Positions 2,377-20,855 of a stretch of DNA of 20,856 nt are shown here, piece by piece. The position numbers and the translations under genes are program-made. The stretch comes from Promethearchaeota archaeon Loki_b32. GTDB taxonomy: Archaea > Asgardarchaeota > Lokiarchaeia > Sigyniarchaeales > SOKP01. Where the stretch lies: positions 1-20,856 of the forward strand of contig NJBH01000051.1 in NCBI GenBank assembly GCA_005223125.1, given 5' to 3'. Positions within the stretch are counted from its first letter, which is position 1. Each line of letters begins with the position of its first letter. The notes beneath the pieces were generated by a model. It saw only the letters and a program-made list of their open reading frames with translations. It did no database searches and was not told the DNA's origin.

Positions 2377-2467
2377 AATTCAAAGAGTTCAAAAATTATG
2401 ATCATAGTTCAACTATAGTTCAAACTACATCTGAACTTTATGTAACAAAACTATATATTGAACTTCA
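2377..2467 (+). promoter_or_regulatory. promoter A: A(G/C)TTCA-like box array + TATA (AACTATATAT 2449-2458)
   Basis: AGTTCA at 2386, 2406 and 2417; ACTACA 2424; ACTTTA 2435; 8 nt gap to TATA; ACTTCA 2462. Same spacing as promoters B-D. Confidence 0.65.
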
Positions 2468-2477
2468 TCTTCATTTT

Positions 2478-2509
2478 AATTAAACAAAACAACAATTAAA
2501 CAAAACAAC
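2478..2509 (+). repeat. perfect 16-bp tandem repeat AATTAAACAAAACAAC x2 in the 5' leader
   Basis: Copies at 2478-2493 and 2494-2509, followed by a partial AAAACAG. Confidence 0.85.
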
Positions 2510-2549
2510 AAAACAGAAAAAAGAATAATGAAAAAGGAGTGAAAAAAAC

Positions 2550-2819
2550 ATGGCTCAAGCAATAAGAAATAAGGATGTAAGAAAAAATTGTGTTGATGTC
2601 GAACATATTATTACAGAAGGTTTGATAAAACCCGAGAGGGAAGAGATTCGGGAAATAGTGGAGCCAAATCAATCTAGCGAGCTTAGCAAAAAGCTCTTAA
2701 AGTTTCATTCAAAATCTAAATATAATGCAAAATATCATCAAGAGTTAATTCCTTTTGAACGGGTTAAATACAAATTAACTTACAGGACTTACAGGAATTA
2801 TGCAATTAATTTAAATTAG
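2550..2819 (+). CDS. small hypothetical protein (89 aa), paralog of 12613..12822
   Basis: RBS GGAGTGA upstream. Shares PE.EE..E.VE, KK.LKF, AK.HQE.I and K......YR with 12613..12822. Confidence 0.8.
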   Translation: MAQAIRNKDVRKNCVDVEHIITEGLIKPEREEIREIVEPNQSSELSKKLLKFHSKSKYNAKYHQELIPFERVKYKLTYRTYRNYAINLN

Positions 2820-2862
2820 TAAAAAATAAAAAGAAAAAAAATGAAAAAGTGAGGTAAAAAAA

Positions 2863-2940
2863 ATGAGAAAAATGCGAGAAGCAATAATTATAATTAAAAA
2901 TGGTATTGTGAACTATAATCTAACTTATCTTAATCAATAA
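2863..2940 (+). CDS. micropeptide, 25 aa MRKMREAIIIIKNGIVNYNLTYLNQ
   Basis: RBS GAGGT at 2851-2855, ATG 2863, TAA 2938-2940, then a T-tract. Same position and similar composition as 12851..12940. Confidence 0.65.
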   Translation: MRKMREAIIIIKNGIVNYNLTYLNQ

Positions 2941-3022
2941 ATATTTTTTTTATTTTTATGAAAGACAAGCTACTGAGTAATTTACGATAATCAATCATTA
3001 TTATATCATCTCGAAAATAAAT

Positions 3023-3093
3023 CTTTTCCATTTCCGTATTAGAACGTAATGTGAGAAAATGGGGCGAGATTTTTACTCGCCCTAATTACATTA
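3023..3093 (+). other. conserved intergenic element copy 1 (CTTTTCCATTTCC + GGGCGAG-ATTTTTA-CTCGCCC hairpin)
   Basis: Stem 3062-3068/3076-3082; related copies at 7544-7595 and 12963-13013. Confidence 0.75.
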
Positions 3094-3121
3094 AAAATAA
3101 TAATTTAAATGGTGAAAATGT

Positions 3122-3301
3122 ATGGGTTTAGAAAAAATAAATTTTGTAGGTAGGTGCCATTGTCCAGAATGCAATGGTTTGTATATTATAATAGACAATG
3201 AAATTATTTCTTGTCCTGTATGTGAATTAAATTCACATGGAAATGTCTCAAAAATGTACGAAGAGGAAGCAGGAAAAGAAGTAGTTCAATATCAAGTTTA
3301 A
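3122..3301 (+). CDS. zinc-ribbon microprotein (59 aa; CPEC...CPVC)
   Basis: RBS GGTGA at 3111-3115. Translation MGLEKINFVGRCHCPECNGLYIIIDNEIISCPVCELNSHGNVSKMYEEEAGKEVVQYQV; below the ORF-track cut-off. Confidence 0.75.
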   Translation: MGLEKINFVGRCHCPECNGLYIIIDNEIISCPVCELNSHGNVSKMYEEEAGKEVVQYQV

Positions 3302-3348
3302 AGTTCAATGAAAGTTCATTTAGTTAATCTATATATAAAACAAGTTAT
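3283..3348 (+). promoter_or_regulatory. promoter B: AGTTCA box array + TATA (ATCTATATAT 3327-3336)
   Basis: AGTTCA 3283, AGTTTA 3295, AGTTCA 3302, AGTTCA 3313; 8 nt gap to TATA. Confidence 0.7.
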
Positions 3349-3392
3349 TTAAAATTAATAAAAAAAAGAATCTGTAAAATAGGTAATTAAAA

Positions 3393-4703
3393 ATGGAACA
3401 AACTCCAACGAAAAGGAATTTCAGGCATTATATGTATTTCTTATTTGGACAACAATTTTCAATGCTGGGATCAATGATAGTGGGTTTTGTAATTACATTC
3501 TGGCTCACTATAGAAACCGGTAGCACTGTGATCCTTTCAATTTCGGTGTTTTTGATGTTTCTACCGCAAATTATTATAACGCCATTCTCTGGTGTTATCG
3601 CTGACAGGTGGAATAAGAAGGCTATTATTGCCTTTACAGATTCGATGCAAGCAGGGGTAACCTTTTTACTATTTGTATTTTTTCTTTTTGACTTTCAAAA
3701 CATTTGGTTAATATTAGGTGTAAACACATTTAGGGCATCATTATATGCATTTCAATATCCTACAGTACAATCTCTCATTCCAACAATGGTTCCGAAGGAA
3801 AAATTAAGTAGGATAAATGGTATAAATTTCTTATTTTCAGGAGTAATTTTTAGTATAGGTCCATTGCTCGCAGCAACACTTTTAGCATTTTTTACAATTA
3901 ACCAAATTTTCTTTGTTGACATTATAACTTTTTTAATTGCTCTCGTCCCATTTCTGTTAATAAAAATACCTAAAGTACATCGAGTTACAGAAGAAGCTGC
4001 TAAGAAGTCAATGTTTAAGGATTTCAAAACAGGGTTATTAACAATCAAGATGATTCCAGGCTTGTTTGCTATGATTGCATTTGCGATGATATGGAATTTC
4101 ATTAGTAGACCCTGGGCAGTGTTGCTACCATACTTTATATTAATTACACATGAGGGAACGGCTTTCTCTTTAGCATTGTTAATGACTTCATCTCAAGCTG
4201 GAAATATTCTTGGATCACTTATTTGTTCAGTTAAGAAAAATTGGAAACACAAAATAAAACTGAACATAATTGGCTCATCAATATTTTTCATATGTCAAAT
4301 ACCTGCGATTCTTGCACCTAAAGGGAATTTCATTCTCATGATGATAGTTCTTTTTCCCGCATGGGTACTATTTCCAATTACAGTTTCCACATATTTAACT
4401 ATTTTGCAAACAGTTGTTTCTAAAGATAAAATTGGCAGAATTATGTCAATTGATCACATGATTTCAATGGCGATAGCTCCAATTGGAGCGCTTATTGCGG
4501 GACCATTAGCAGAAACCATTGGTATAATCAATTTGTTTTTTATTTTTGCGATTGTGGGTATGATATTTCCTTATATCATTTGGTTTTTCACAAAAATCAG
4601 ACAGCTTGAAATCATCGAAAGAGAAATTATCATGAAAACAGAGGAAGTTGTTGAATTAGAAGAAACTCCAGAAATTATTCAAGTTATTGAACCAATTGAA
4701 TAA
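3393..4703 (+). CDS. MFS transporter (DHA3/MefA-like exporter type)
   Basis: About 12 hydrophobic segments; GQQFSMLGS N-terminus; MFS motif A GVIADRWNKK; PTMVPKEKLSRING; GRIMS..H....AIAPIGALIAGPL. Confidence 0.92.
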   Translation: MEQTPTKRNFRHYMYFLFGQQFSMLGSMIVGFVITFWLTIETGSTVILSISVFLMFLPQIIITPFSGVIADRWNKKAIIAFTDSMQAGVTFLLFVFFLFDFQNIWLILGVNTFRASLYAFQYPTVQSLIPTMVPKEKLSRINGINFLFSGVIFSIGPLLAATLLAFFTINQIFFVDIITFLIALVPFLLIKIPKVHRVTEEAAKKSMFKDFKTGLLTIKMIPGLFAMIAFAMIWNFISRPWAVLLPYFILITHEGTAFSLALLMTSSQAGNILGSLICSVKKNWKHKIKLNIIGSSIFFICQIPAILAPKGNFILMMIVLFPAWVLFPITVSTYLTILQTVVSKDKIGRIMSIDHMISMAIAPIGALIAGPLAETIGIINLFFIFAIVGMIFPYIIWFFTKIRQLEIIEREIIMKTEEVVELEETPEIIQVIEPIE

Positions 4704-4801
4704 ATTTTTTTTTCTCTTTTATTTATAATCTCTTTTTAAAAAAATTTTCCAATTCGCCATAGAGCATTTATTTAAATAGATGATACTTCATTCCTTAAAT
4801 A

Positions 4802-5890
4802 ATGGAAGAATTTACTATTAATGAGTATCTTAGCTTAAGACTTGAAGACGAAACGACAAATATCTATGTAAACAACAAAAAAATCTTGCGATGTAAATAC
4901 ATTCTAATCGATATTCCTATTGAAACCTTAGACAATGATGAATTTGAATCTATTGATGAATATATTGATGAGTATAAAAAAGTTGAAGCAGAAACAAAAG
5001 AGAAAGCAAAAAAGCTTCCACCTGATGTGGAGTTCTGGGGTCATTGCTCCAACCTTCACTATTGGCACTTACAGCAATATGATACAAATATTATTCATCA
5101 CGAATTAGCGTTTCCCTTACTAAAAGCTCTTACCAAAGCAGGAGACCTAATAGCTAAAGCAAGGTTTAAAGATGAGATCGCGAAATGATTTGGAAGCGGA
5201 TATCCCTCAGTCATGAAATTCTTAGAAAAAGAAGGATACTTAGAGTACCTAAATGAAGGAGAGCTTATATTATGTGTAAAAGACGCACTCGAGAAGAGTT
5301 TAAGAAAATTGGATCATAAGGCTGTAGATTGGTTAATAATGTATTACGGAAATAAACTTAAAACACATTTCGGAAGGGAGGAATACCTAAATATTCTTTT
5401 AAACAAAAACGAGGCAGAAATCATCATCGAATTAGGAAAAATTATTGGTAAAGATATCATAATTGAAGAATATAGAATTGATAGACTACATATTTCAGGT
5501 CTTTCAGAAGAGTATAGAGATACTAAAAGAAACCCATTTACAGAGTACTCAATCGAAGTAGAAGATAAATTTGTCGTAAGGCTTAATTTGTCAGATTGTG
5601 GTCTAAATTCTTTTCCTAAAATTATAACTGAATTAATAAAATTAGAAACTCTAATTTTAAATGGAAATGAATTAAAAGAAATATCAAAATCAATTTTAGA
5701 CATGAAATATTTAAGATTTGTATCCATAGCTCGTTGTGGAATTCAAAACATCCCAAATTGGTTTAAAAACTTAAAACTTTTAAAAGGAATATATCTTTTA
5801 GAAGGAATAAATCTATCAGGCAATCCGTTAAATGAAAGAAGTAAAGAATTAATAAAAAATTTTAAAAATATTGAATACTGGGTAAATTAA
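4802..5890 (+). pseudogene. Lokiarchaeia-type leucine-rich repeat protein interrupted by an in-frame TGA at 5186-5188
   Basis: ORFs 4802..5188 and 5213..5890 are in the same frame: KDEIAK*FGSGYPSVMKFL. N-terminal EFTINEYLSLRLE...EFWGHCSNL...LAFPLLKAL domain; C-terminal LRRs (LNLSDCGLNSFP, LETLILNGNELKEIS, INLSGNPL). Confidence 0.85.
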
Positions 5891-6153
5891 TCAATCCATC
5901 CCTTTTCCCTATACTTATTAACCAAATAAGGATTGTCCAGTAAATCGACATAGTTAGGCCTAATATACTTGTCTAAATCGGAGCTATATATGATCAAAGT
6001 ACCTCCACCCCAGATAAGGTCCCATTCCTCATTCATTAGGTCAATAAAATCCTCTGTACTCATTTCAATTTCCTCCCCGAGAATAGTTGGATGCACCGTG
6101 CTAACATAATAGTTATTAAATACGAAGTTACCGAAATCCCAGAAATTGTCCAA
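5887..6153 (-). pseudogene. probable gene fragment (88 aa, TTG start, no RBS)
   Basis: Protein-like sequence in a visibly more GC-rich patch. The frame is open up to a stop at 6201-6199 with no ATG upstream of 6153. Its stop overlaps the LRR stop (TTAA). Confidence 0.35.
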
Positions 6154-6278
6154 GTTGCTAGGACTGTAGAGTAAGTTTTTTTTAATTTTTTTTATTCTTT
6201 AATTTTTTTTAAGTAATTTATAATTAATTTGAAGCCTTTTTCACTAAATCTCATTCTATAGGTAATAAATATTCTATA

Positions 6279-6381
6279 ACTTCAATTTCAGTTTCCAGTT
6301 CACTTCAAGTTCAATTATCAAATCTATTTATGTAATAAAATCTAATCTTTGATCAGAAAAGAACTTGGCATGGAAAGTTCG
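6279..6381 (+). promoter_or_regulatory. promoter C: A(G/C)TTCA box array + TATA (ATCTATTTAT 6322-6331)
   Basis: ACTTCA 6279, AGTTTC 6290, AGTTCA 6297, AGTTCA 6308; 8 nt gap to TATA; downstream GAACT 6361 and AGTTCG 6376. Confidence 0.7.
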
Positions 6382-6423
6382 AACAATAAATATTAAACGA
6401 AATCACTAAAATAGGTATATTAA

Positions 6424-7383
6424 ATGACAGAAAGACCAGAAACAGAAAAGGCTTTAATAGATAGTTTGAACTTAAAAGCTTCTGAGATAGCGGATTCGAA
6501 ATTTAAACTAATAGATAGAGTTATTCTAGATTTTGCACCAGAAATAGCATATATATACCAGATTCGGGAGGATAAATCAGAAGAACAACAGATAAAAACA
6601 GGACGTCTTCATGAAAATCGCATTTTAGGAATTTTTTTAAAATTTTATTTAGAAGGCAAAAAAAAAATTACCACAGGAGACGTTGAGGAGGAATATAGGC
6701 TATATTTTAGAGAGATTGCACGATCAACTACATCAACTTATTTAAACATGCTTAAAAATGAATCTATTTTATCCACAGAAAAAGATGGGAGAAAAGCTTA
6801 TTATTTTTTACATGAAGATCCCCCACTAGGGATCAAACCTTTTTGGTTTACACGAATTTTTTGTATAGTTCCTGTTTATTTTAATAGAGCGATGACTTTT
6901 TCTCATTTATACATTAATCCTGAAAAAGCCATACAGGATTACGTTAATCAATACGGAGGTAAAGATAAAAAAATTTTAGTAAAAAATTTCAAATTTATTA
7001 TAGGGCTAATATTATTAAATATTTTTAAAAATCGAAGTTCGAAGTGTATACTTTGTCAATTTAGTAAAAGGGAAATATATGAGAAATTGGAAGAAATAAT
7101 TAGTATTGCAATTAAAGATAGAACTGATGTTTTACCCGAGGATCTGGTGAATAATGTAATAAACAAGTATTCAGAAATACCAACGCTCAATGAAACTGAT
7201 AACGATATTATGGAAGAAATCACTACTCACATGTCAAGATATGCTGATATTTACAAAAGAGATATTGAATTTCAGGTTATGTTATCAGTTCGACGGCAAG
7301 ATTTACGGTTAAAACAAAAAAGGGCTTTAGAGGGAGATATGTTATCAGTTTTAATTGAGGAAAAAATCGAGAGAGGTGTATGA
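6424..7383 (+). CDS. winged-helix transcriptional regulator with uncharacterised C-terminal domain
   Basis: RILGIFLKFYLEGKKKITTGDVEEEY...IARSTTSTYLNMLKNESILSTEKDGRKAYYFL is a wHTH with wing; a CILC motif occurs later. Confidence 0.75.
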   Translation: MTERPETEKALIDSLNLKASEIADSKFKLIDRVILDFAPEIAYIYQIREDKSEEQQIKTGRLHENRILGIFLKFYLEGKKKITTGDVEEEYRLYFREIARSTTSTYLNMLKNESILSTEKDGRKAYYFLHEDPPLGIKPFWFTRIFCIVPVYFNRAMTFSHLYINPEKAIQDYVNQYGGKDKKILVKNFKFIIGLILLNIFKNRSSKCILCQFSKREIYEKLEEIISIAIKDRTDVLPEDLVNNVINKYSEIPTLNETDNDIMEEITTHMSRYADIYKRDIEFQVMLSVRRQDLRLKQKRALEGDMLSVLIEEKIERGV

Positions 7384-7526
7384 AAATTAATAAGATTAAA
7401 TTAAATTGTATGATATGTGGGAAGGAAATCAAATTAAATTTTAATTCTATTACGGCGATATGTAAGAAATGTCAGAAAACCCGTGAGAAAACCCTTATTT
7501 ATGAACCATTTTTCCTATCAGAATAA
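7380..7526 (+). CDS. zinc-ribbon microprotein (48 aa; CMICG...CKKC)
   Basis: RBS GAGGTG and ATGA overlap with the stop of 6424..7383. Translation MKINKIKLNCMICGKEIKLNFNSITAICKKCQKTREKTLIYEPFFLSE. Confidence 0.8.
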   Translation: MKINKIKLNCMICGKEIKLNFNSITAICKKCQKTREKTLIYEPFFLSE

Positions 7527-7543
7527 TAATTTAATTTATTTTA

Positions 7544-7595
7544 CTTTTTCATTTCCAAATTATAAGAGAGAGATTTTTACTCGCCTTTAAGTTTT
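7544..7595 (+). other. conserved intergenic element copy 2 (degenerate 5' arm)
   Basis: CTTTTTCATTTCCAAATTATAAGAGAGAGATTTTTACTCGCCTTTAAGTTTT; shares GAGATTTTTACTCGCC exactly with copy 1. Confidence 0.7.
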
Positions 7596-7686
7596 ACAAA
7601 AAAACTATTAGTTATTTTGATTTTTCATGATTTTGAATTTCTCAAATTAGAGCAAACTCTACTTAGAAGAAAATATAATTTATGTT

Positions 7687-7777
7687 AAGTTGTGAAATTT
7701 TTTACACTATAATTATGTTTAAATACTCTATTAGATTTTATATTCTTAGAAAGTTGTGAAAAAAAAATACACAACTT
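7687..7777 (+). promoter_or_regulatory. two operator-like dyads flanking the thioredoxin TATA box
   Basis: Perfect AAGTTGTG-N11-CACAACTT at 7751-7777; imperfect AAGTTGTG-N10-CACTATAA at 7687-7712; TTTAAATA at 7718-7725 between them. Confidence 0.7.
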
Positions 7778-7806
7778 ATTTAAGAATTTTAAAATGTGAA
7801 AAACGA

Positions 7807-8211
7807 ATGCAAGAAGTAGATGAGAAATTAGAAATGTTGAGAAGTAAAAAAGCTGAAGCTTTATTAAAACATCAAAAAATGCCAGAGAGTGTTATAAAGG
7901 TAAACTCTGTAGAAGAATTTAACAAAATCTTAAAAGATTACCCTGATAAAATAATTATTATAGATTTTTGGGCAGTTTGGTGTGGCCCTTGCATGTTCTT
8001 CGCTCCAATTTTCAAAAAACTTCATGAAGAATTTCAAAACGACTTTATATTTCTTAAGGTTAATGTTGATGAAAACCCTTCCGTAGCAATGAAATACCAG
8101 ATAACCGGAATCCCAACAACGTTATTCATTAAAAATGGAGAAATTGTAAATAAGATTGTTGGAGCCATGAATTATGATGGAATGAAAAAAGTATTAGTAA
8201 AGTTAAAGTAA
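7807..8211 (+). CDS. trxA: thioredoxin
   Basis: DFWAVWCGPC active site and ITGIPT cis-Pro loop. ATG 7807 (MQEVDEKLEMLRSKK, archaeal-type N-terminal helix) is preferred over GTG 7756, which lies inside the operator palindrome. Confidence 0.95.
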   Translation: MQEVDEKLEMLRSKKAEALLKHQKMPESVIKVNSVEEFNKILKDYPDKIIIIDFWAVWCGPCMFFAPIFKKLHEEFQNDFIFLKVNVDENPSVAMKYQITGIPTTLFIKNGEIVNKIVGAMNYDGMKKVLVKLK

Positions 8212-8274
8212 TAAACTCGTTAAACTAGTTCTTTTTTTATTTATATTCTTTTTATAATTTTAAGGTAATGATTA

Positions 8275-8739
8275 ATGGAAGTAATAGAAAAACAATTAAA
8301 AGAATTTGAATTAATAGATGGATTATTGGAGAAAAAAGAAATCTTTTCTAGTGAACGATTATTCAAATGTATTTTAGGTTTAAATAAAACAGAATCGAAG
8401 GTACTTGGATATATGTTAAAAAATAAAGATGTAAGAACATCTGAAATTGCAAATGCATTAAAGATGGATAGAAGCTCAATTCAAAGAGCTGTTCAAGGTT
8501 TATCTGAGTTAAAACTCATTGATCGTAAATCAATGTCGATGAAAGATTATACTGCTACAAAAGAACTAAAAGATGCCAAAAAACAAGGGTATCTCTATGT
8601 TTATAATGCAAAGAACATGGAATCCATAAAAATTCAATTAAAAAAACTGTTAGATAAATGGTACAATTCAATGTTAAAATACATTAAAAATCTTGAAAAT
8701 CTCTGCGAATGTTGTGGTTTCAAATTTGAACCATGTTAA
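8275..8739 (+). CDS. HTH transcriptional regulator (TrmB/COG3355-like) with Cys-rich C-terminus
   Basis: FKCILGLNKTESKVL...SEIANALKMDRSSIQRAVQGLSELKLIDR...GYLYVY; C-terminal CECCGFKFEPC. Confidence 0.85.
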   Translation: MEVIEKQLKEFELIDGLLEKKEIFSSERLFKCILGLNKTESKVLGYMLKNKDVRTSEIANALKMDRSSIQRAVQGLSELKLIDRKSMSMKDYTATKELKDAKKQGYLYVYNAKNMESIKIQLKKLLDKWYNSMLKYIKNLENLCECCGFKFEPC

Positions 8740-8775
8740 ACATTTTGATAGATATAAGAAAAAATTAGTCATAAG

Positions 8776-9447
8776 TTAGAACATATAAATTACGTTAAAA
8801 GGGAGATTTTCCAATATTTCTTTAAGATCTTCTTTAAATTCTTTCGAAACAGGTTCAAAACCATCTAAAGTATAATTACTGACAGAATAATGATCTGGCA
8901 TGACTTCTAATAAGAATTCTTTTAATTTTTCCACATTTTTAATGTTATCATTAATACCCTTCAAAAACATTGTATAGATCCCTAATTTACCATTAAAATT
9001 TTTGCTAAATTCTATAATTCCTTCTAATACATCCATTGAGTTTATGGATTCAGGACATTTATTAATTTTTGAAAACTGAAAGTTATTAACGCTATTGAGA
9101 TTGATGGCAACCAAGTCACATCCATAAAAAATATTTCGAACGTCTTCATCTTGAAAGATTCCACAATTTAAATAAATACCAATTTTTTGTTTTGGATATA
9201 CCGCCTTAATCATTTTTGTAATTAGTTTAAATTTTGAAGGGTTTATGGTGTTGGTTATTCCCTTAAACCAAATTAAACTTGGAATCCCTCGAACTTTAAT
9301 ACAATCTCTAATTTCATTAAAAATTTCTTCAGTAATGTTAATCAAGTCTGAATCTTCAGAACTAGAGCTGAAATCAACTGATAAAAGAGTTCCAAAATTA
9401 AAATTAAACTCAAACGCTTTTACGTATCTGTAATCCATTAAGATCAC
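8776..9447 (-). CDS. radical-SAM-like partial TIM barrel lacking CxxxCxxC (COG0731-like C-terminal part)
   Basis: IGIYLNCGIF, DLVAINLNSV...FSKINKC and GKLGIYTMFLKGINDN..NVEKLKEFL..VMPD resemble the radical SAM core. No three-Cys motif is present. Located 14 nt downstream of the TPR gene. Confidence 0.6.
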   Translation of the reverse strand: MILMDYRYVKAFEFNFNFGTLLSVDFSSSSEDSDLINITEEIFNEIRDCIKVRGIPSLIWFKGITNTINPSKFKLITKMIKAVYPKQKIGIYLNCGIFQDEDVRNIFYGCDLVAINLNSVNNFQFSKINKCPESINSMDVLEGIIEFSKNFNGKLGIYTMFLKGINDNIKNVEKLKEFLLEVMPDHYSVSNYTLDGFEPVSKEFKEDLKEILENLPFNVIYMF

Positions 9448-9461
9448 ATTCTGTATTTGGA

Positions 9462-12425
9462 TTATTCAATATCTTTCGATTCTCCTAGTAATGCCTTAAC
9501 TTCAGAAATCAATTTCTCTACTTTAGGTAGGTATTTAGATGTATGACTAGGATGCATCTTTTCAGTCAATTTTTTCCCTCGTTCATAATATTCAAGCGCT
9601 TTTTCAATCTTTTCAAGTTTTTTAAAACATTCTCCCATTTTTAAGCAAGTTTCAAAAGCAAACCATCCTGAAGGTTCGAGATTCAAAGCTTCTCTAAATT
9701 TTTCAAGAGCATTTTCGTACTCTTCAAAAATCATTAATATTTCACCGTATGTATCATAAGAATTTCCATATTTAGGATTAAGACTTATTAGATATTCAGC
9801 AGTTTCAATGGCTTCCTCTCTTCTTCTTAAATGCCCTAACATATATGCTTTATTGTTTATAATATTAGTATCTCGTGGAAATAATTTAAGTGCTTCATCA
9901 GTAGTTTTTAAACCTTCATCATATTGTTGTTGATGGACCTGAATATACGATTTTAGTAAGAGAAGATTTCTTTTTAAAGTGGGGTGGCTTTCTAACAATT
10001 CATGAATTAAATCCAAAGCTTCATCTTCTCTCTTGGAAGTTAATAGAAAGTAAGCTTTCCTAGCATATAGAGGATGTAGTGTTGGAACCAACTCAATTGC
10101 ACTATCAACAGAGTCAATAGATTCATCGTATTTTTTAAGCCCATTTAAAATGTGTGCTTGCAATAGAAGATACTTTATTTTATTATATTTAATAGGCTCA
10201 AAAGAGATTGTAAGCTTTATTAATTCAATAAATATATCAATATTTGGCTCTTTAAATGTAAATTTATAAATTAAATTATAACCAAGTACTAAAGCTTTAG
10301 TGAGAAATGAAATGGGATGATCAGGATAAAGTGTTAAAACGAGATTAGCAATTTCTAAAGATTTATCAAATTTACCACGTGCTAAATAGGAGTAAGTTAA
10401 AATGAAATACGCAATTGTATCAATTCTGGGATTCTTTTTAAAATTATTGATATCAATTCCTCCTGTAATTACTCTCTTCGCTTCTTTATATTTATTGATC
10501 AGACAATAGTATAAACTTTTCAAAAGCAGAATATCTTGATCAGTTGGATTCAATATGGTTAATTGATTTATTACCTCTAAAGGTTTATTATAATCCTTTA
10601 CTAGTGACATCCAATGAGAAATATATACTATGTATTTTGCTTTTAATAGTGCGGTATTATCAGGATATTGAGATAATAAATCCTCAATATCATCAAGTAC
10701 TTTATCTCCTTGATATACCCTAATTAAAATTTGAGCTTTTTGGCATGTTAAGAGAACATTTGGTGTTATCTCTAATGCCTCCTCTATAATTTCTAAAGAT
10801 TTCTCATAATTATCCATTGAAAAGTAAGTTATTGATTGGAATAAGTATCCTATGAAATCATTTGGATATTTTTGAATAATTTCATTAGTAATTTTAACTG
10901 ATTCAATTAAATCATTTTCTGCTGTCGCTATAATATCTTTTAAAATTAATTGATTAATGGTTTTTAACTTAGTATTACTATTCTGATATAGCTCCTTTGC
11001 TTTAGAAACTTTATTCCCATTTAAATTTTTTACAACTTTATTATAGATATCTAATTTATTCAAATTGTATGTCTTCTGAATTTCATTTGTATTCAAGAAA
11101 TTTAATTTGGATAGAAACATAATATCTAAAGCATTGAAGATATTGGGCTCCAAAGCATAATAATACTCATCCTCCTCTCCAGCTATTGGTAGGCTTGAAG
11201 GTTCAAAAGTTTGGAATTCTTCCTTAATATTCTGCCAAACAAAACCTTCTAATTTTGCTTCACTATCAACTAATTTTTTCTCAGTCTCAATTTTATATGC
11301 TAAATATCTAATGTACCCAGGTAAGAATGTTTTTAATGAAGGTTTCAGATGTTCATTGAATAGGTTACCACAAATATCATCTAAGATTTTATCTAATAGC
11401 AATTCTACATCTATCGTCGTAGTTTCATGAAATTTATTTAAATATGTTAATTTTATAATATGTTTTTCTACAATCGCCTTAAGAACTTTCTCAACTGTCT
11501 CATTCTTTTGAAAATAATAAGTTCCCCCTTGCTCATCCTTCATAATAAAGAATTTAATGTCAAAAAATTCATTGTCTACTATCTCTCTTATATAATAATC
11601 TAATGTAGTTCTATCAATCTTGTACTTCAACGAGAAGTCTTTGGTTGAAATAAACTCAGGATATTGAGCAGGATGATTAATCGAAAGGAACAATAAAATT
11701 TTATTAAAGTCCTCCTCATCTTTTAGCATCGCTTCCACTTTAGAATAAGACAACTTCAAGATATGATCAAGATATTGATATTTTAATTCATCATCCTCTA
11801 TTTTATATTTCTTAAAGAATCTACTAGTTTTTTCTGTAATTTCTTCAATTCTCTTGCTTTCCTGTTCCAAAATAGACTGACGATCCAAATCATAGGATTT
11901 CAATATTCTAAGATATTCTGTCTTTCCTAACGGTGTTATTATATATTCTTTATTATCTCTTGAAATAAATCCCCCATCTATTAATGAATTTAAATTATTT
12001 GATAAAGAGGATTGATTAATTAACAGCGGTTCTTGTTTAAAGTCTGACCATTTACATGAATAATTATTATAGAGCATCCATAAAATCCAATGATCATAAT
12101 TCCTAAATTTGAGAATTGTTTTTGGTGGAAATTTCAATCTCCTCTGCCCGGATTTTCTATCATAGACTAACTCACTATACCGATCTCGCCCTTGTGGAGT
12201 AATTCGATATTTCCCCTTTTCAGGCTTCTCAATATAATCTTTATTCAAAAGTTTTTTTAAATTGCCTGATAAAGTTGATTCACTTATTTCAGCAGTAAAA
12301 GCGGACCACTCACAAATATTATTGTTGCTGAGCATCCATAATATTACATATTCAAAATCAGTTTTCCCCATAATGGGGTTTAATATCTCTCCAGGAGGAT
12401 ATAAGACTCCCTCTGATCTACTCAT
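9462..12425 (-). CDS. tandem winged-helix + TPR-repeat protein (987 aa)
   Basis: Two N-terminal wHTH repeats (ILWML.NN..C.WS.F....I..S.LS.NL..L.....I......Y.ITP.G...Y) and a possible third HTH (FSLKYKIDRTTLDYYIREI). The C-terminal half is TPRs, e.g. NSYDTYGEILMIFEEYENALEKFREALNLEP. Confidence 0.88.
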   Translation of the reverse strand: MSRSEGVLYPPGEILNPIMGKTDFEYVILWMLSNNNICEWSAFTAEISESTLSGNLKKLLNKDYIEKPEKGKYRITPQGRDRYSELVYDRKSGQRRLKFPPKTILKFRNYDHWILWMLYNNYSCKWSDFKQEPLLINQSSLSNNLNSLIDGGFISRDNKEYIITPLGKTEYLRILKSYDLDRQSILEQESKRIEEITEKTSRFFKKYKIEDDELKYQYLDHILKLSYSKVEAMLKDEEDFNKILLFLSINHPAQYPEFISTKDFSLKYKIDRTTLDYYIREIVDNEFFDIKFFIMKDEQGGTYYFQKNETVEKVLKAIVEKHIIKLTYLNKFHETTTIDVELLLDKILDDICGNLFNEHLKPSLKTFLPGYIRYLAYKIETEKKLVDSEAKLEGFVWQNIKEEFQTFEPSSLPIAGEEDEYYYALEPNIFNALDIMFLSKLNFLNTNEIQKTYNLNKLDIYNKVVKNLNGNKVSKAKELYQNSNTKLKTINQLILKDIIATAENDLIESVKITNEIIQKYPNDFIGYLFQSITYFSMDNYEKSLEIIEEALEITPNVLLTCQKAQILIRVYQGDKVLDDIEDLLSQYPDNTALLKAKYIVYISHWMSLVKDYNKPLEVINQLTILNPTDQDILLLKSLYYCLINKYKEAKRVITGGIDINNFKKNPRIDTIAYFILTYSYLARGKFDKSLEIANLVLTLYPDHPISFLTKALVLGYNLIYKFTFKEPNIDIFIELIKLTISFEPIKYNKIKYLLLQAHILNGLKKYDESIDSVDSAIELVPTLHPLYARKAYFLLTSKREDEALDLIHELLESHPTLKRNLLLLKSYIQVHQQQYDEGLKTTDEALKLFPRDTNIINNKAYMLGHLRRREEAIETAEYLISLNPKYGNSYDTYGEILMIFEEYENALEKFREALNLEPSGWFAFETCLKMGECFKKLEKIEKALEYYERGKKLTEKMHPSHTSKYLPKVEKLISEVKALLGESKDIE

Positions 12426-12471
12426 AATGAATCACGGTTTCTTCTATAAGATCTTATTTTATATTTATATT

Positions 12472-12559
12472 AGTTCACTATCCTTTTAAGCTTTTCACTT
12501 CGGAGTAAAGTATGAACTTCACATGAAGTGCGAAGTGCGAATCTATATAATGGAGTTCG
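12472..12559 (+). promoter_or_regulatory. promoter D (divergent region): box array + TATA (ATCTATATAA 12541-12550)
   Basis: AGTTCA 12472, ACTTCG 12497, ACTTCA 12516, AGTGCG 12527; 8 nt gap to TATA; AGTTCG 12554. Confidence 0.65.
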
Positions 12560-12612: not shown

Positions 12613-12822
12613 ATGGAACAAGTTTTTGAAAAAGAACCCTTTTATATTGTACTTCCTGAAATTGAGGAAAAAGCAGAAAAAGTTGAGGAGAAACCAAAAG
12701 AGATCAAAAAGAAACTTAAATTTAGGAAACACGCCAAGCAGCATCAAGAGAGAATCGATATTAATAAAATAAGGAATAAAATGAATGCAAGCCGATACAG
12801 AGCAACTCTCTACAATCGATAA
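12613..12822 (+). CDS. small hypothetical protein (69 aa), paralog of 2550..2819
   Basis: Acidic N-half, basic C-half; shared motifs PEIEEKAEKVE, KKKLKF, HAKQHQERI and RYR. Confidence 0.8.
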   Translation: MEQVFEKEPFYIVLPEIEEKAEKVEEKPKEIKKKLKFRKHAKQHQERIDINKIRNKMNASRYRATLYNR

Positions 12823-20005: not shown

Positions 20006-20855
20006 TATTATCCTCCTTATTTTGTGATTCTACATTACTTCCAATATTATCTTCCTTAAGATTTGCTTTCATTGTTTTAGTTTTACTATATGCTTCTGAA
20101 TCTTTTAATTGAGGCTGTCCATAATCAATAATTTCTAATTCATTTTGGATATTAGATTTAATGAGCTCTTCTCTATTATTTAATAAAATTGGTTTAACTT
20201 TTCTTCCCTTTCTTATTTTCTTTTTCAAATTTCTTATTTTTCTAACCATTGGTGGGTACTTGAAATGTAATTGATATGAGCCAAAAACAACAATAATACC
20301 ACCAATAGCAGCAATTAAAGTGTAAACTAACCAGCTCATATCTGTTCCTGGTGTTATTGGTTCATCTGGTTCGATAATAACATAAGAAATATCAAGAGAG
20401 ACATCATCAATTGAAACAGATATGTTTTGATCTAATACAAAATCATCCGCAAGATACACTTGAAGTGATAAATTAACGTCATCTGTAATTAAATTTGAAA
20501 CATCAAAACCACCAACTTTAGCTTCCTGAAAGGAAGTAGTAGCAGTACTTAATTTGACAGTTTCTGTATGTTTATTATCATTAATTAAAATCCTAATCTC
20601 AGAATTTGGAGATAATGAAGTATTCCATAATTGATCAATTTTATAATTAAAATTAAGAGTGGCATTTTGAACTATAACGGGATATTCACTTAGATCGCTG
20701 ATTTTATCACAATTTTGTTTCCAGGAGATAGAAGTAAATCTGTTTATCTTTTTCTCATAATCGAATGAAAGATTACAGGATTTAATGAGTAAATAATACC
20801 ATGTGTCAATCTCAGCATTAGCATAATTATCTTCATTATAAATATCGATACCTAG
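19998..20855 (-). CDS. paralogous single-pass cell-surface protein, 5' end outside the window
   Basis: The frame stays open to the window edge (LGIDIYNEDNYANAEIDTWYYLLIKSCNLSFD...) and aligns with 18338..20005, so the track start at 20459 is internal. Confidence 0.85.
   Translation of the reverse strand, partial: LGIDIYNEDNYANAEIDTWYYLLIKSCNLSFDYEKKINRFTSISWKQNCDKISDLSEYPVIVQNATLNFNYKIDQLWNTSLSPNSEIRILINDNKHTETVKLSTATTSFQEAKVGGFDVSNLITDDVNLSLQVYLADDFVLDQNISVSIDDVSLDISYVIIEPDEPITPGTDMSWLVYTLIAAIGGIIVVFGSYQLHFKYPPMVRKIRNLKKKIRKGRKVKPILLNNREELIKSNIQNELEIIDYGQPQLKDSEAYSKTKTMKANLKEDNIGSNVESQNKEDNNE
20355..20791. repeat. direct repeat copy 2 (partner 18641-19077)
   Basis: Direct alignment by eye of the two paralogous coding segments. 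Confidence 0.9.

Follow-up and report, generated by a model that had tools for sequence, protein, structure and literature searches.

Contig NJBH01000051.1 of Promethearchaeota archaeon Loki_b32, analyzed at its entire length of 20,856 nucleotides (nt) and called the window here (contig C19), contains four promoters, A to D, with a pair of short boxes at a fixed distance from a TATA-like element. The unit is A[G/C]TTCA-N5-A[G/C]TTCA (box 1 distal, box 2 TATA-proximal); its half-sites lie one helical turn apart and it ends exactly 8 nt before A(T/A)CTATWWA. We confirm that this shared box layout is real and far beyond chance. Comparisons among promoters support the view that the layout defines a co-regulated set. 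A preliminary description of the window had proposed A to D as such a set; the layout does mark one, and it is larger, with about 14 members in the genome. The reading that we modestly favor is that the boxes would form a promoter-proximal operator, docked by paralogous proteins with tandem winged helices and tetratricopeptide repeats (TPRs) that act as activators on the TATA-binding protein (TBP) and transcription factor B (TFB).

Layout and spacing of the boxes

The host genome (G000; 4.13 Mb, 71 contigs, 29.9% G+C) has gene calls from a longest-open-reading-frame heuristic, and 650 kb of its intergenic DNA was used for repeat counts. The top rank among all hexamer direct repeats at distances of 6-23 in this intergenic DNA goes to AGTTCA at distance 11 (7 observed vs 0.092 expected, Poisson P 1e-11). 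The exact AGTTCA-N5-AGTTCA has seven copies in the genome, all intergenic and three inside the window. A hexamer repeat scan of the whole genome was set aside, as coding periodicities dominated it, and was rerun on intergenic DNA alone. Second in over-representation is TGATCA at a 10 bp distance (6 observed vs 0.065 expected), a repeat that may mark sites of another regulator.

The position of the boxes relative to the TATA-like word is equally restricted. The genome contains 1555 A[TA]CTAT[AT][AT]A words. With these as anchors, gap 8 yields 8 double boxes (two mismatches or fewer), and no other gap in the range 0 to 29 yields more than one. The gap scan agrees with the earlier proposal of phased direct repeats whose position just before the TATA-like element is fixed. 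The full layout, box-N5-box-N8-A(T/A)CTATWWA, occurs 10 times in the genome. Its intergenic matches number 9, and 30 third-order Markov simulations of the intergenic DNA average 0.03, so the pattern is not as frequent in random intergenic DNA, the outcome that was to have counted against the proposal. Searched with up to 2 mismatches, 38 of 41 genomes of the genus have the pattern, with 251 matches vs 15 for a reversed control pattern. N7 in place of N8 gives 8 matches in these 41 genomes vs 16 for the control, which is background. The genus genomes are relatives, so counts across them are non-independent samples.

These results bear on the possibility that the similarity is chance in AT-rich DNA or the product of a recent promoter-cassette duplication. 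Short A/T-rich and TATA-like words are frequent at 30% G+C, as the 1555 anchors illustrate; the repeat scan, the gap scan, the N7 control and the Markov simulations nevertheless contradict this explanation. Neither the N5 and N8 spacers nor the flanks are related between sites of this genome, so that one site is not a copy of another, and the layout is kept across two genera. We consider the explanation refuted by these controls and its remaining probability negligible. A position weight matrix built from 11 sites was rejected as overfitted, recovering its own training sites alone (30-42; next 17.5), and was used only to list sites. Its top score belongs to promoter C, which was in the training set.

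Site anatomy was compared in 59 distinct sites, taken from this genome and from loci retrieved from relatives. Relative to box 1, further exact boxes peak at -19 (7 sites), -18 (8), -7 (4) and +38 (4), and with one mismatch allowed, 24 of the 59 sites have a box at -18/-19. The second pair is recurrent, not universal. Arrays reach four or more copies with 11 bp phasing and extend upstream of the core promoter. The downstream box is exact in 4 of the 59 sites, and most cargo promoters do not have it.

Two positions outside the search pattern are also kept, T at +47 (46 of 59 sites) and A at +58 (49 of 59). This genome has 13 full-layout sites, located before different genes, and both bases are kept in 11 of them. 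Archaeal promoters have an initiator with the TATA centered near -27 and a promoter-proximal element near -11. In the sequence comparison the A at +58, which comes after T or C, fits an initiator with the TATA core centered at about +30, and the T at +47 fits the promoter-proximal element. From this geometry and the two kept bases we infer starts at about 2482 (A), 3360 (B), 6355 (C), and 12574 (D).

The TATA-like word itself appears to be of wider use. In divergent vs convergent intergenic regions, CTATATA and CTATTTA rank near the top of the enriched 7-mers (about 2-fold), consistent with a general TATA variant. A consensus around generic CTATWWA words has no signal of a TFB recognition element (BRE) and no orientation bias (539 forward, 578 reverse); most of these generic words are noise in an AT-rich genome. 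Strand-specific 8-mer enrichment upstream of the genes of this genome gives no clear promoter word, and the 11 tRNAs detected are too few for a promoter consensus from tRNA upstream regions. That count comes from Aragorn with default settings across the 4.13 Mb, and many tRNA genes of this genome are probably split or intron-bearing.

Promoters in the window and across the genome

The boxes, spacers and TATA-like elements of A to D, all on the forward strand, were claimed earlier at coordinates that match the sequence in every case. The second upstream pairs (-7 and -18/-19 from box 1) are likewise in place, with that of D weak, and the additional box claimed 13 nt past the TATA start in A and D is seen in both (ACTTCA at 2462; AGTTCG at 12554). 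In promoter A the upstream pair (2406..2422) is an exact AGTTCA-N5-AGTTCA with boxes at 2406 and 2417, and further boxes are AGTTCA at 2386 and AATTCA at 2376. The TATA-proximal pair (2424..2440) is a degenerate version, ACTACA at 2424 and, after N5, ACTTTA at 2435. The TATA-like element AACTATATAT (2449..2458) begins 8 nt past box 2 and the downstream box ACTTCA occupies 2462-2467. Under this promoter is a gene for an 89 amino acid protein without a family match (2550..2819). A promoter resembling A, ACTACA-tctga-ACT..., faces a gene for an 844 amino acid paralog of the candidate regulator in another genome (locus L025), with a longer gap to the TATA.

Promoters B and C have exact AGTTCA-N5-AGTTCA proximal pairs. 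The boxes of B (3283..3318) start at 3283, 3295, 3302 and 3313 (spacing 12, 7, 11) and read AGTTCA, AGTTTA, AGTTCA and AGTTCA; N8 and the TATA-like element ATCTATATAT (3327..3336) follow. The gene under B (3393..4703) encodes a 436 amino acid major facilitator superfamily (MFS) transporter (MFS_1 match, E 8e-25). Those of C (6279..6313) start at 6279, 6290, 6297 and 6308 (spacing 11, 7, 11) and read ACTTCA, AGTTTC, AGTTCA and AGTTCA, with ATCTATTTAT (6322..6331) as the TATA-like element after N8. Promoter C precedes the gene for a 319 amino acid protein with a single weak winged-helix match (6424..7383).

The boxes of promoter D (12497..12532) are ACTTCG at 12497, a weak AGTATG at 12509, ACTTCA at 12516 and AGTGCG at 12527. 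They begin 72 nt from the start of the divergent gene for the candidate regulator (9462..12425). After N8 comes the TATA-like element ATCTATATAA (12541..12550), then the downstream box AGTTCG (12554..12559), and then the gene for a 69 amino acid protein without a family match (12613..12822), which weakly resembles the 89 amino acid protein of promoter A (E 0.003). Among the four promoters, the direct-repeat reading fits D worst; its second box is AGTGCG and the region is readable as a dyad. D is best described as ACTTCG, then an ACTTCA-CA-TGAAGT dyad, then GCGAAGTGCGA, then the TATA. The phasing of box 1 and box 2 to the TATA is kept in 13 of 13 orthologous loci, and the +13 box is kept in 13 orthologous loci, with an exact AGTTCA in three. 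Promoter D is a real member of the set, and it was the earlier direct-repeat reading of it that was forced. At 12513-12540 the dyad overlaps a tandem GAAGTGC GAAGTGC, and both are kept in orthologous loci. The divergent promoter of the regulator at D may be read in both directions.

Across the genome we find about 14 sites with the layout, A to D included, most of them on other contigs. All 14 are intergenic and have 8 nt between box 2 and the TATA-like element. At least 12 face a co-directional gene; at least 11 of these genes start 80-160 nt past box 1 and one is 352 nt away. The sites outside the window precede genes for an alpha/beta hydrolase (C43:1394), a flavin reductase-like protein (C69:748), a cupin (C21:193167), a second MFS transporter (C4:43833), a 102 amino acid protein together with a metallo-beta-lactamase-fold protein (C47:40377), an ATC-hydrolase-like protein (C65:8787), an M32 carboxypeptidase (C5:17078; TATA-like word TTCTTTTAA), and a 402 amino acid protein (C37:78530). 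One site drives an 836 amino acid regulator itself (C65:11453), with a gap of 7 as anchored, through an A run. The last (C37:20619) is followed by a G+C-rich leader and then a Ras-type GTPase gene 352 nt downstream; Ras/Arf-type GTPases are encoded in this genome. Proteins of the window have near homologues in metagenome bins named Lokiarchaeia or Promethearchaeota, and the organism is of the Lokiarchaeia type.

Near-identical box strings recur across the genus before the C4-type MFS gene, the M32 carboxypeptidase gene and the flavin reductase-like gene. The M32 carboxypeptidase promoter (C5:17045-17078, locus L008) has an exact AGTTCA pair and a different TATA-like word, TTCTTTTAA, and the entire string is kept in most genus genomes. 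Past the C37:20619 promoter, the G+C-rich stretch (C37, about 20430-20560, reverse strand; L007:3830-3960) contains a long hairpin, gggagagctcggttgtt ... aacaatacgggctctc. The stretch is kept downstream of the matching promoter in three other genomes (loci L034, L037, L038) and has no credible match in Rfam. It could be a leader or a small RNA.

The candidate regulator and its link to the boxes

The gene divergent from promoter D (9462..12425, reverse strand) encodes a 987 amino acid protein with two tandem MarR/PadR-like winged helices and TPR repeats. In order, it has the winged helices (about 17-93 and 104-180), a long helix, a third winged-helix-like domain, a helical region, and TPR repeats from about residue 476. 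The N-terminus is internally duplicated, and the only Pfam matches in it are HTH_34, HTH_45 and MarR-type. An AlphaFold model of residues 1-420, made from 28 sequences, has a mean predicted local distance difference test score of 82 and places winged helix 1 at about 24-91, winged helix 2 at about 110-175, the long helix at 182-206 and the third winged-helix-like domain at about 237-306. In the model, residues 17-93 and 104-180 each align to MarR/PadR structures (Z 9.4-10.5). The closest fold is BldR (3f3x; Z 10.5, root-mean-square deviation 1.9 A over 76 residues), and the MarR-operator complex 5h3r aligns with Z 9.9. The 987 amino acid protein thus has the MarR/PadR winged-helix fold, and it does not have the arrangement of a single-domain homodimer on a palindrome.

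Other comparisons of the protein are negative. Foldseek of the 420-residue model against the PDB gives no match at E <= 0.001, only weak multi-winged-helix (RPC62) and single-domain hits, and a PDB sequence search gives generic TPR matches only. The Walker A motif [AG]xxxxGK[ST] is absent from all four paralogs and the 987 amino acid protein has no NTPase family match, which sets the family apart from the STAND NTPases (AfsR, MalT, GutR). The third winged-helix-like domain sits in a 200-residue region that is kept in all paralogs (LLFLSxNHPxQYP ... YYFQ ... FLPxYIxYLAY) and has no family match. The gene 14 nt downstream of the regulator gene (8776-9447, reverse strand) encodes a 223 amino acid protein with a sub-threshold radical-SAM match (24 bits, cut-off 29.5).

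The genome contains four copies of the N-terminal module, in the 987 amino acid protein and in three paralogs on contigs C65 and C37, encoded at C65:8864-11374, C37:20702-22624 and C37:29217-31133. Family members have 640-990 amino acids and carry the public names "tetratricopeptide repeat protein" or "hypothetical". Of the 14 sites, three are no more than 100 nt from the start of one of the four regulator genes (expected 0.005, P 3e-8), and the fourth regulator gene has AGTTCC-N5-AGTTTC upstream. The family is present in all 18 genus genomes searched (3-11 matches each), and motif sites adjoin many of those genes. One sister genus has the layout too. The motif is at background in 19 genomes of families f2, f3 and f4; a search of 11 f2/f4 genomes with the query from this genome did not find the regulator, and the one f3 genome has it, with its boxes arranged differently.

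In genera g11, g12 and g13, regulator genes face box-N5-box-N8-TATA with other box words (ACTTCG/AGTTCG, ACYCCC/AGTMYT, AGTTTC/AGTTTC and AGTTCG/AGTTCC). The box words change with the neighboring regulator while the TATA-like word stays, as is expected if the regulator reads the boxes. Genome G012 has zero pattern matches, and there the regulator promoter has four ACTTCA boxes with spacing 11, 7, 11, then N8 and the TATA-like word; the lack of matches is due to the search pattern.

The same observations speak against the idea that the boxes extend the core promoter and are recognized by one particular paralog of TFB or TBP. The fixed distance to the TATA and the unusually uniform TATA-like word of the set agree with it. 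TFB on the BRE does not usually reach as far as the boxes, however, arrays run to four or more copies with 11 bp phasing, and it is the box words that vary with the neighboring regulator gene while the TATA-like word is constant. We find this explanation very unlikely.

Differences between the two boxes persist within regulator clades. At 13 loci of the 987 amino acid clade, box 1 is ACTTCA-like and box 2 is AGTNCG in 12 and ATTTCG in one; in the 640 amino acid clade and some 840 amino acid clades, box 1 is A[CG]TCCN and box 2 is A[GC]TTCN. A homodimer accounts for such a persistent difference less well than two non-identical domains do. In winged helix 2 the recognition helix is near-invariant (INQSSLS-K-NL) where box 2 is AGTTCA-like, and N or S replaces the K in the 987 amino acid clade, which has AGTNCG. 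Winged helix 1 is more variable, with STLS-I-YL or S-I-Y-L where box 1 has TCC and S-G-N-L or S-K-Y-L where it has TTC. As a lead, this pattern suggests that domain 1 may read the distal box and domain 2 the proximal box.

The preliminary description had named winged-helix domains of two proteins of the window, those encoded at 9462-12425 and 6424-7383, as possible binders of the boxes. The comparative evidence favors the family of the first, and the second, the 319 amino acid protein, behaves as a conserved target. A rival explanation accepts the operator and the regulon and gives the boxes to the 319 amino acid protein, bound as a head-to-tail oligomer, or to another factor, so that the tandem winged-helix/TPR genes are only targets. 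The 319 amino acid protein gene has the best-scoring site in the window, its family is found in 37 of 41 genus genomes, and it is the divergent partner of a 987-aa-type regulator in at least 6 loci of other genomes, where it replaces the small-protein cassette. Its paralog at C49:17214, in contrast, has no boxes upstream, and the protein itself has just the one weak winged-helix match. The box words shift together with the adjacent tandem winged-helix gene across genera, and box 1 and box 2 differ persistently, which agrees with two non-identical domains on a single chain. On these comparisons we judge the rival quite unlikely and describe the 319 amino acid protein gene as a probable conserved target.

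One activator was first supposed to bind all sites, but more than one factor may do so. The genome has four paralogs with closely similar predicted DNA-binding modules, and their own promoters carry box variants.

Sign of regulation and comparison with known systems

In the reading that we favor, one protein molecule would read one box-pair unit, with its N-terminal winged helix at the distal box and its second one at the TATA-proximal box. The remaining parts of the chain would lie against the 8 nt stretch where BRE and TFB would sit, and the bound factor would help TBP/TFB assembly and so be an activator. The TPR array may be the signal-sensing or partner-binding part, and in A and D the extra box, placed after the TATA and before the predicted start, could contribute repression. 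If the family binds the boxes, we consider activation probable. Archaeal activators usually bind upstream of BRE/TATA, and repressors within or downstream of the core promoter (PMC5937170). The activator role is suggested by the position of the boxes, the strict N8 spacing and this positional rule. A spacing that is invariant to the base pair over about 250 sites points to stereospecific contact with basal factors, which steric hindrance would not need.

The same proteins might bind the boxes mainly as repressors, occupying or crowding the position of TFB recognition until released by a signal. The 8 nt between the end of box 2 and the TATA are where the BRE normally lies, and the closest folds are MarR/PadR, whose domains are mostly repressors. 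In A and D a box stands between the TATA and the predicted start, a typical repressor position under the rule of PMC5937170. A steric block needs no base-exact spacing, yet the N8 pattern has 251 matches and the N7 pattern 8; the arrays extend upstream, away from the core promoter, and the downstream box is missing from most cargo promoters. We hold repression as the main role to be unlikely.

Several points weigh against activation by the tandem winged-helix proteins. The covariation of helix and box goes back to one or two independent evolutionary events, and is hence weak. By presence/absence, no paralog is assignable to the canonical AGTTCA pairs, and genomes that do not have the 844-aa-type paralog keep many sites. 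The 319 amino acid protein is consistently linked to the motif and would be the main alternative binder. A box ending 8 nt before the TATA abuts or covers the place of the BRE, so that a factor bound there could get in the way of TFB, and the extra box of promoters A and D has a repressor-type position. Units 18-19 bp apart face different sides of the helix, a point that the model leaves unexplained. Neither a BRE consensus nor a general promoter consensus could be derived for this genome, so the weak BRE or TATA typical of activation would be an assumption here.

AfsR of Streptomyces, a large SARP, binds direct repeats with an 11 bp period eight nt upstream of a core promoter element and activates (PMC11301090). 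The likeness to SARP/AfsR includes a winged-helix end with a C-terminal TPR array (PMC11301090), direct repeats on adjacent major grooves of one DNA face, and the fixed 8 nt distance to the core element, which is found here as well. AfsR differs in being a bacterial protein of the sigma-factor -10/-35 system, with an OmpR-type domain, a BTAD and a STAND ATPase, and in taking its DNA-binding domains from two protomers; here both winged helices are in one chain and MarR/PadR-like, and the proposed partner is TBP/TFB. In Pfam the 987 amino acid protein has no BTAD or OmpR-type match. AfsR is the closest mechanistic parallel to the proposed system, an analogy without homology.

In archaea, EarA of Methanococcus (PMC5512572) and TFB-RF1 of Pyrococcus (PMC5937170) resemble the proposed system in their small elements directly upstream of BRE/TATA, which are bound by helix-turn-helix-type regulators that help basal factors. 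As in promoters of the EarA, TFB-RF1 and Ptr2 type, the element here is upstream of the BRE/TATA position and oriented with the promoter. EarA and TFB-RF1 are small single-domain proteins with one or few known target promoters; the candidate here has 640-990 amino acids and would, by this analogy, activate about 14 promoters with base-exact spacing.

Two bacterial systems share parts of the arrangement. MarA, SoxS and Rob of the AraC family are monomers that fit their two helix-turn-helix units into consecutive major grooves of an asymmetric site of about 20 bp, with activation that depends on position and orientation. The proposed regulator would also be one polypeptide with two DNA-reading units. 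These proteins are bacterial, without TPR and with the AraC fold, and the 987 amino acid protein has no AraC-type helix-turn-helix match. RRNPP receptors of Bacillota (Rgg/SHP, PlcR/PapR) join an XRE-type helix-turn-helix to a TPR peptide sensor and bind palindromic sites. The likeness to them is a DNA-binding end with TPR, a regulator divergent from a small-gene cassette with an operator, and an MFS exporter-type gene in the regulon. Here there are two winged helices and not one XRE-type helix-turn-helix, and direct repeats and not palindromes, and for the small proteins a ligand role and export would be hypothetical.

With that comparison in mind, an Asgard-specific signal circuit can be imagined, in which the TPR receptors bind the small-gene products of A and D, and the cassettes, the MFS exporter, a second regulator and the hydrolase, peptidase and redox genes are switched on via the boxes. 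We regard this as improbable; if true, it would be an archaeal counterpart of bacterial RRNPP-type peptide-pheromone signaling, made from unrelated parts.

Full-text literature searches find neither a transcription-factor regulon nor a promoter map described for Asgard archaea, and nothing on Asgard promoters, this motif or this family; a paper on quorum sensing in cold seeps (PMC12781772) has no relevance to the system. The finding is a testable promoter grammar, made of a box pair, an 8 nt gap, a TATA-like element and a predicted start, and it comes with four candidate binders and about 14 target genes, all of them conserved over some 40 genomes. Given the small size of the N-terminal module, its expression and a test on 17 bp probes would need no culture of the organism. 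Should a single chain recognize both half-sites and touch TBP/TFB at a set distance, the system would be an archaeal analogue of SARP/AfsR activation on a eukaryote-like basal machinery.

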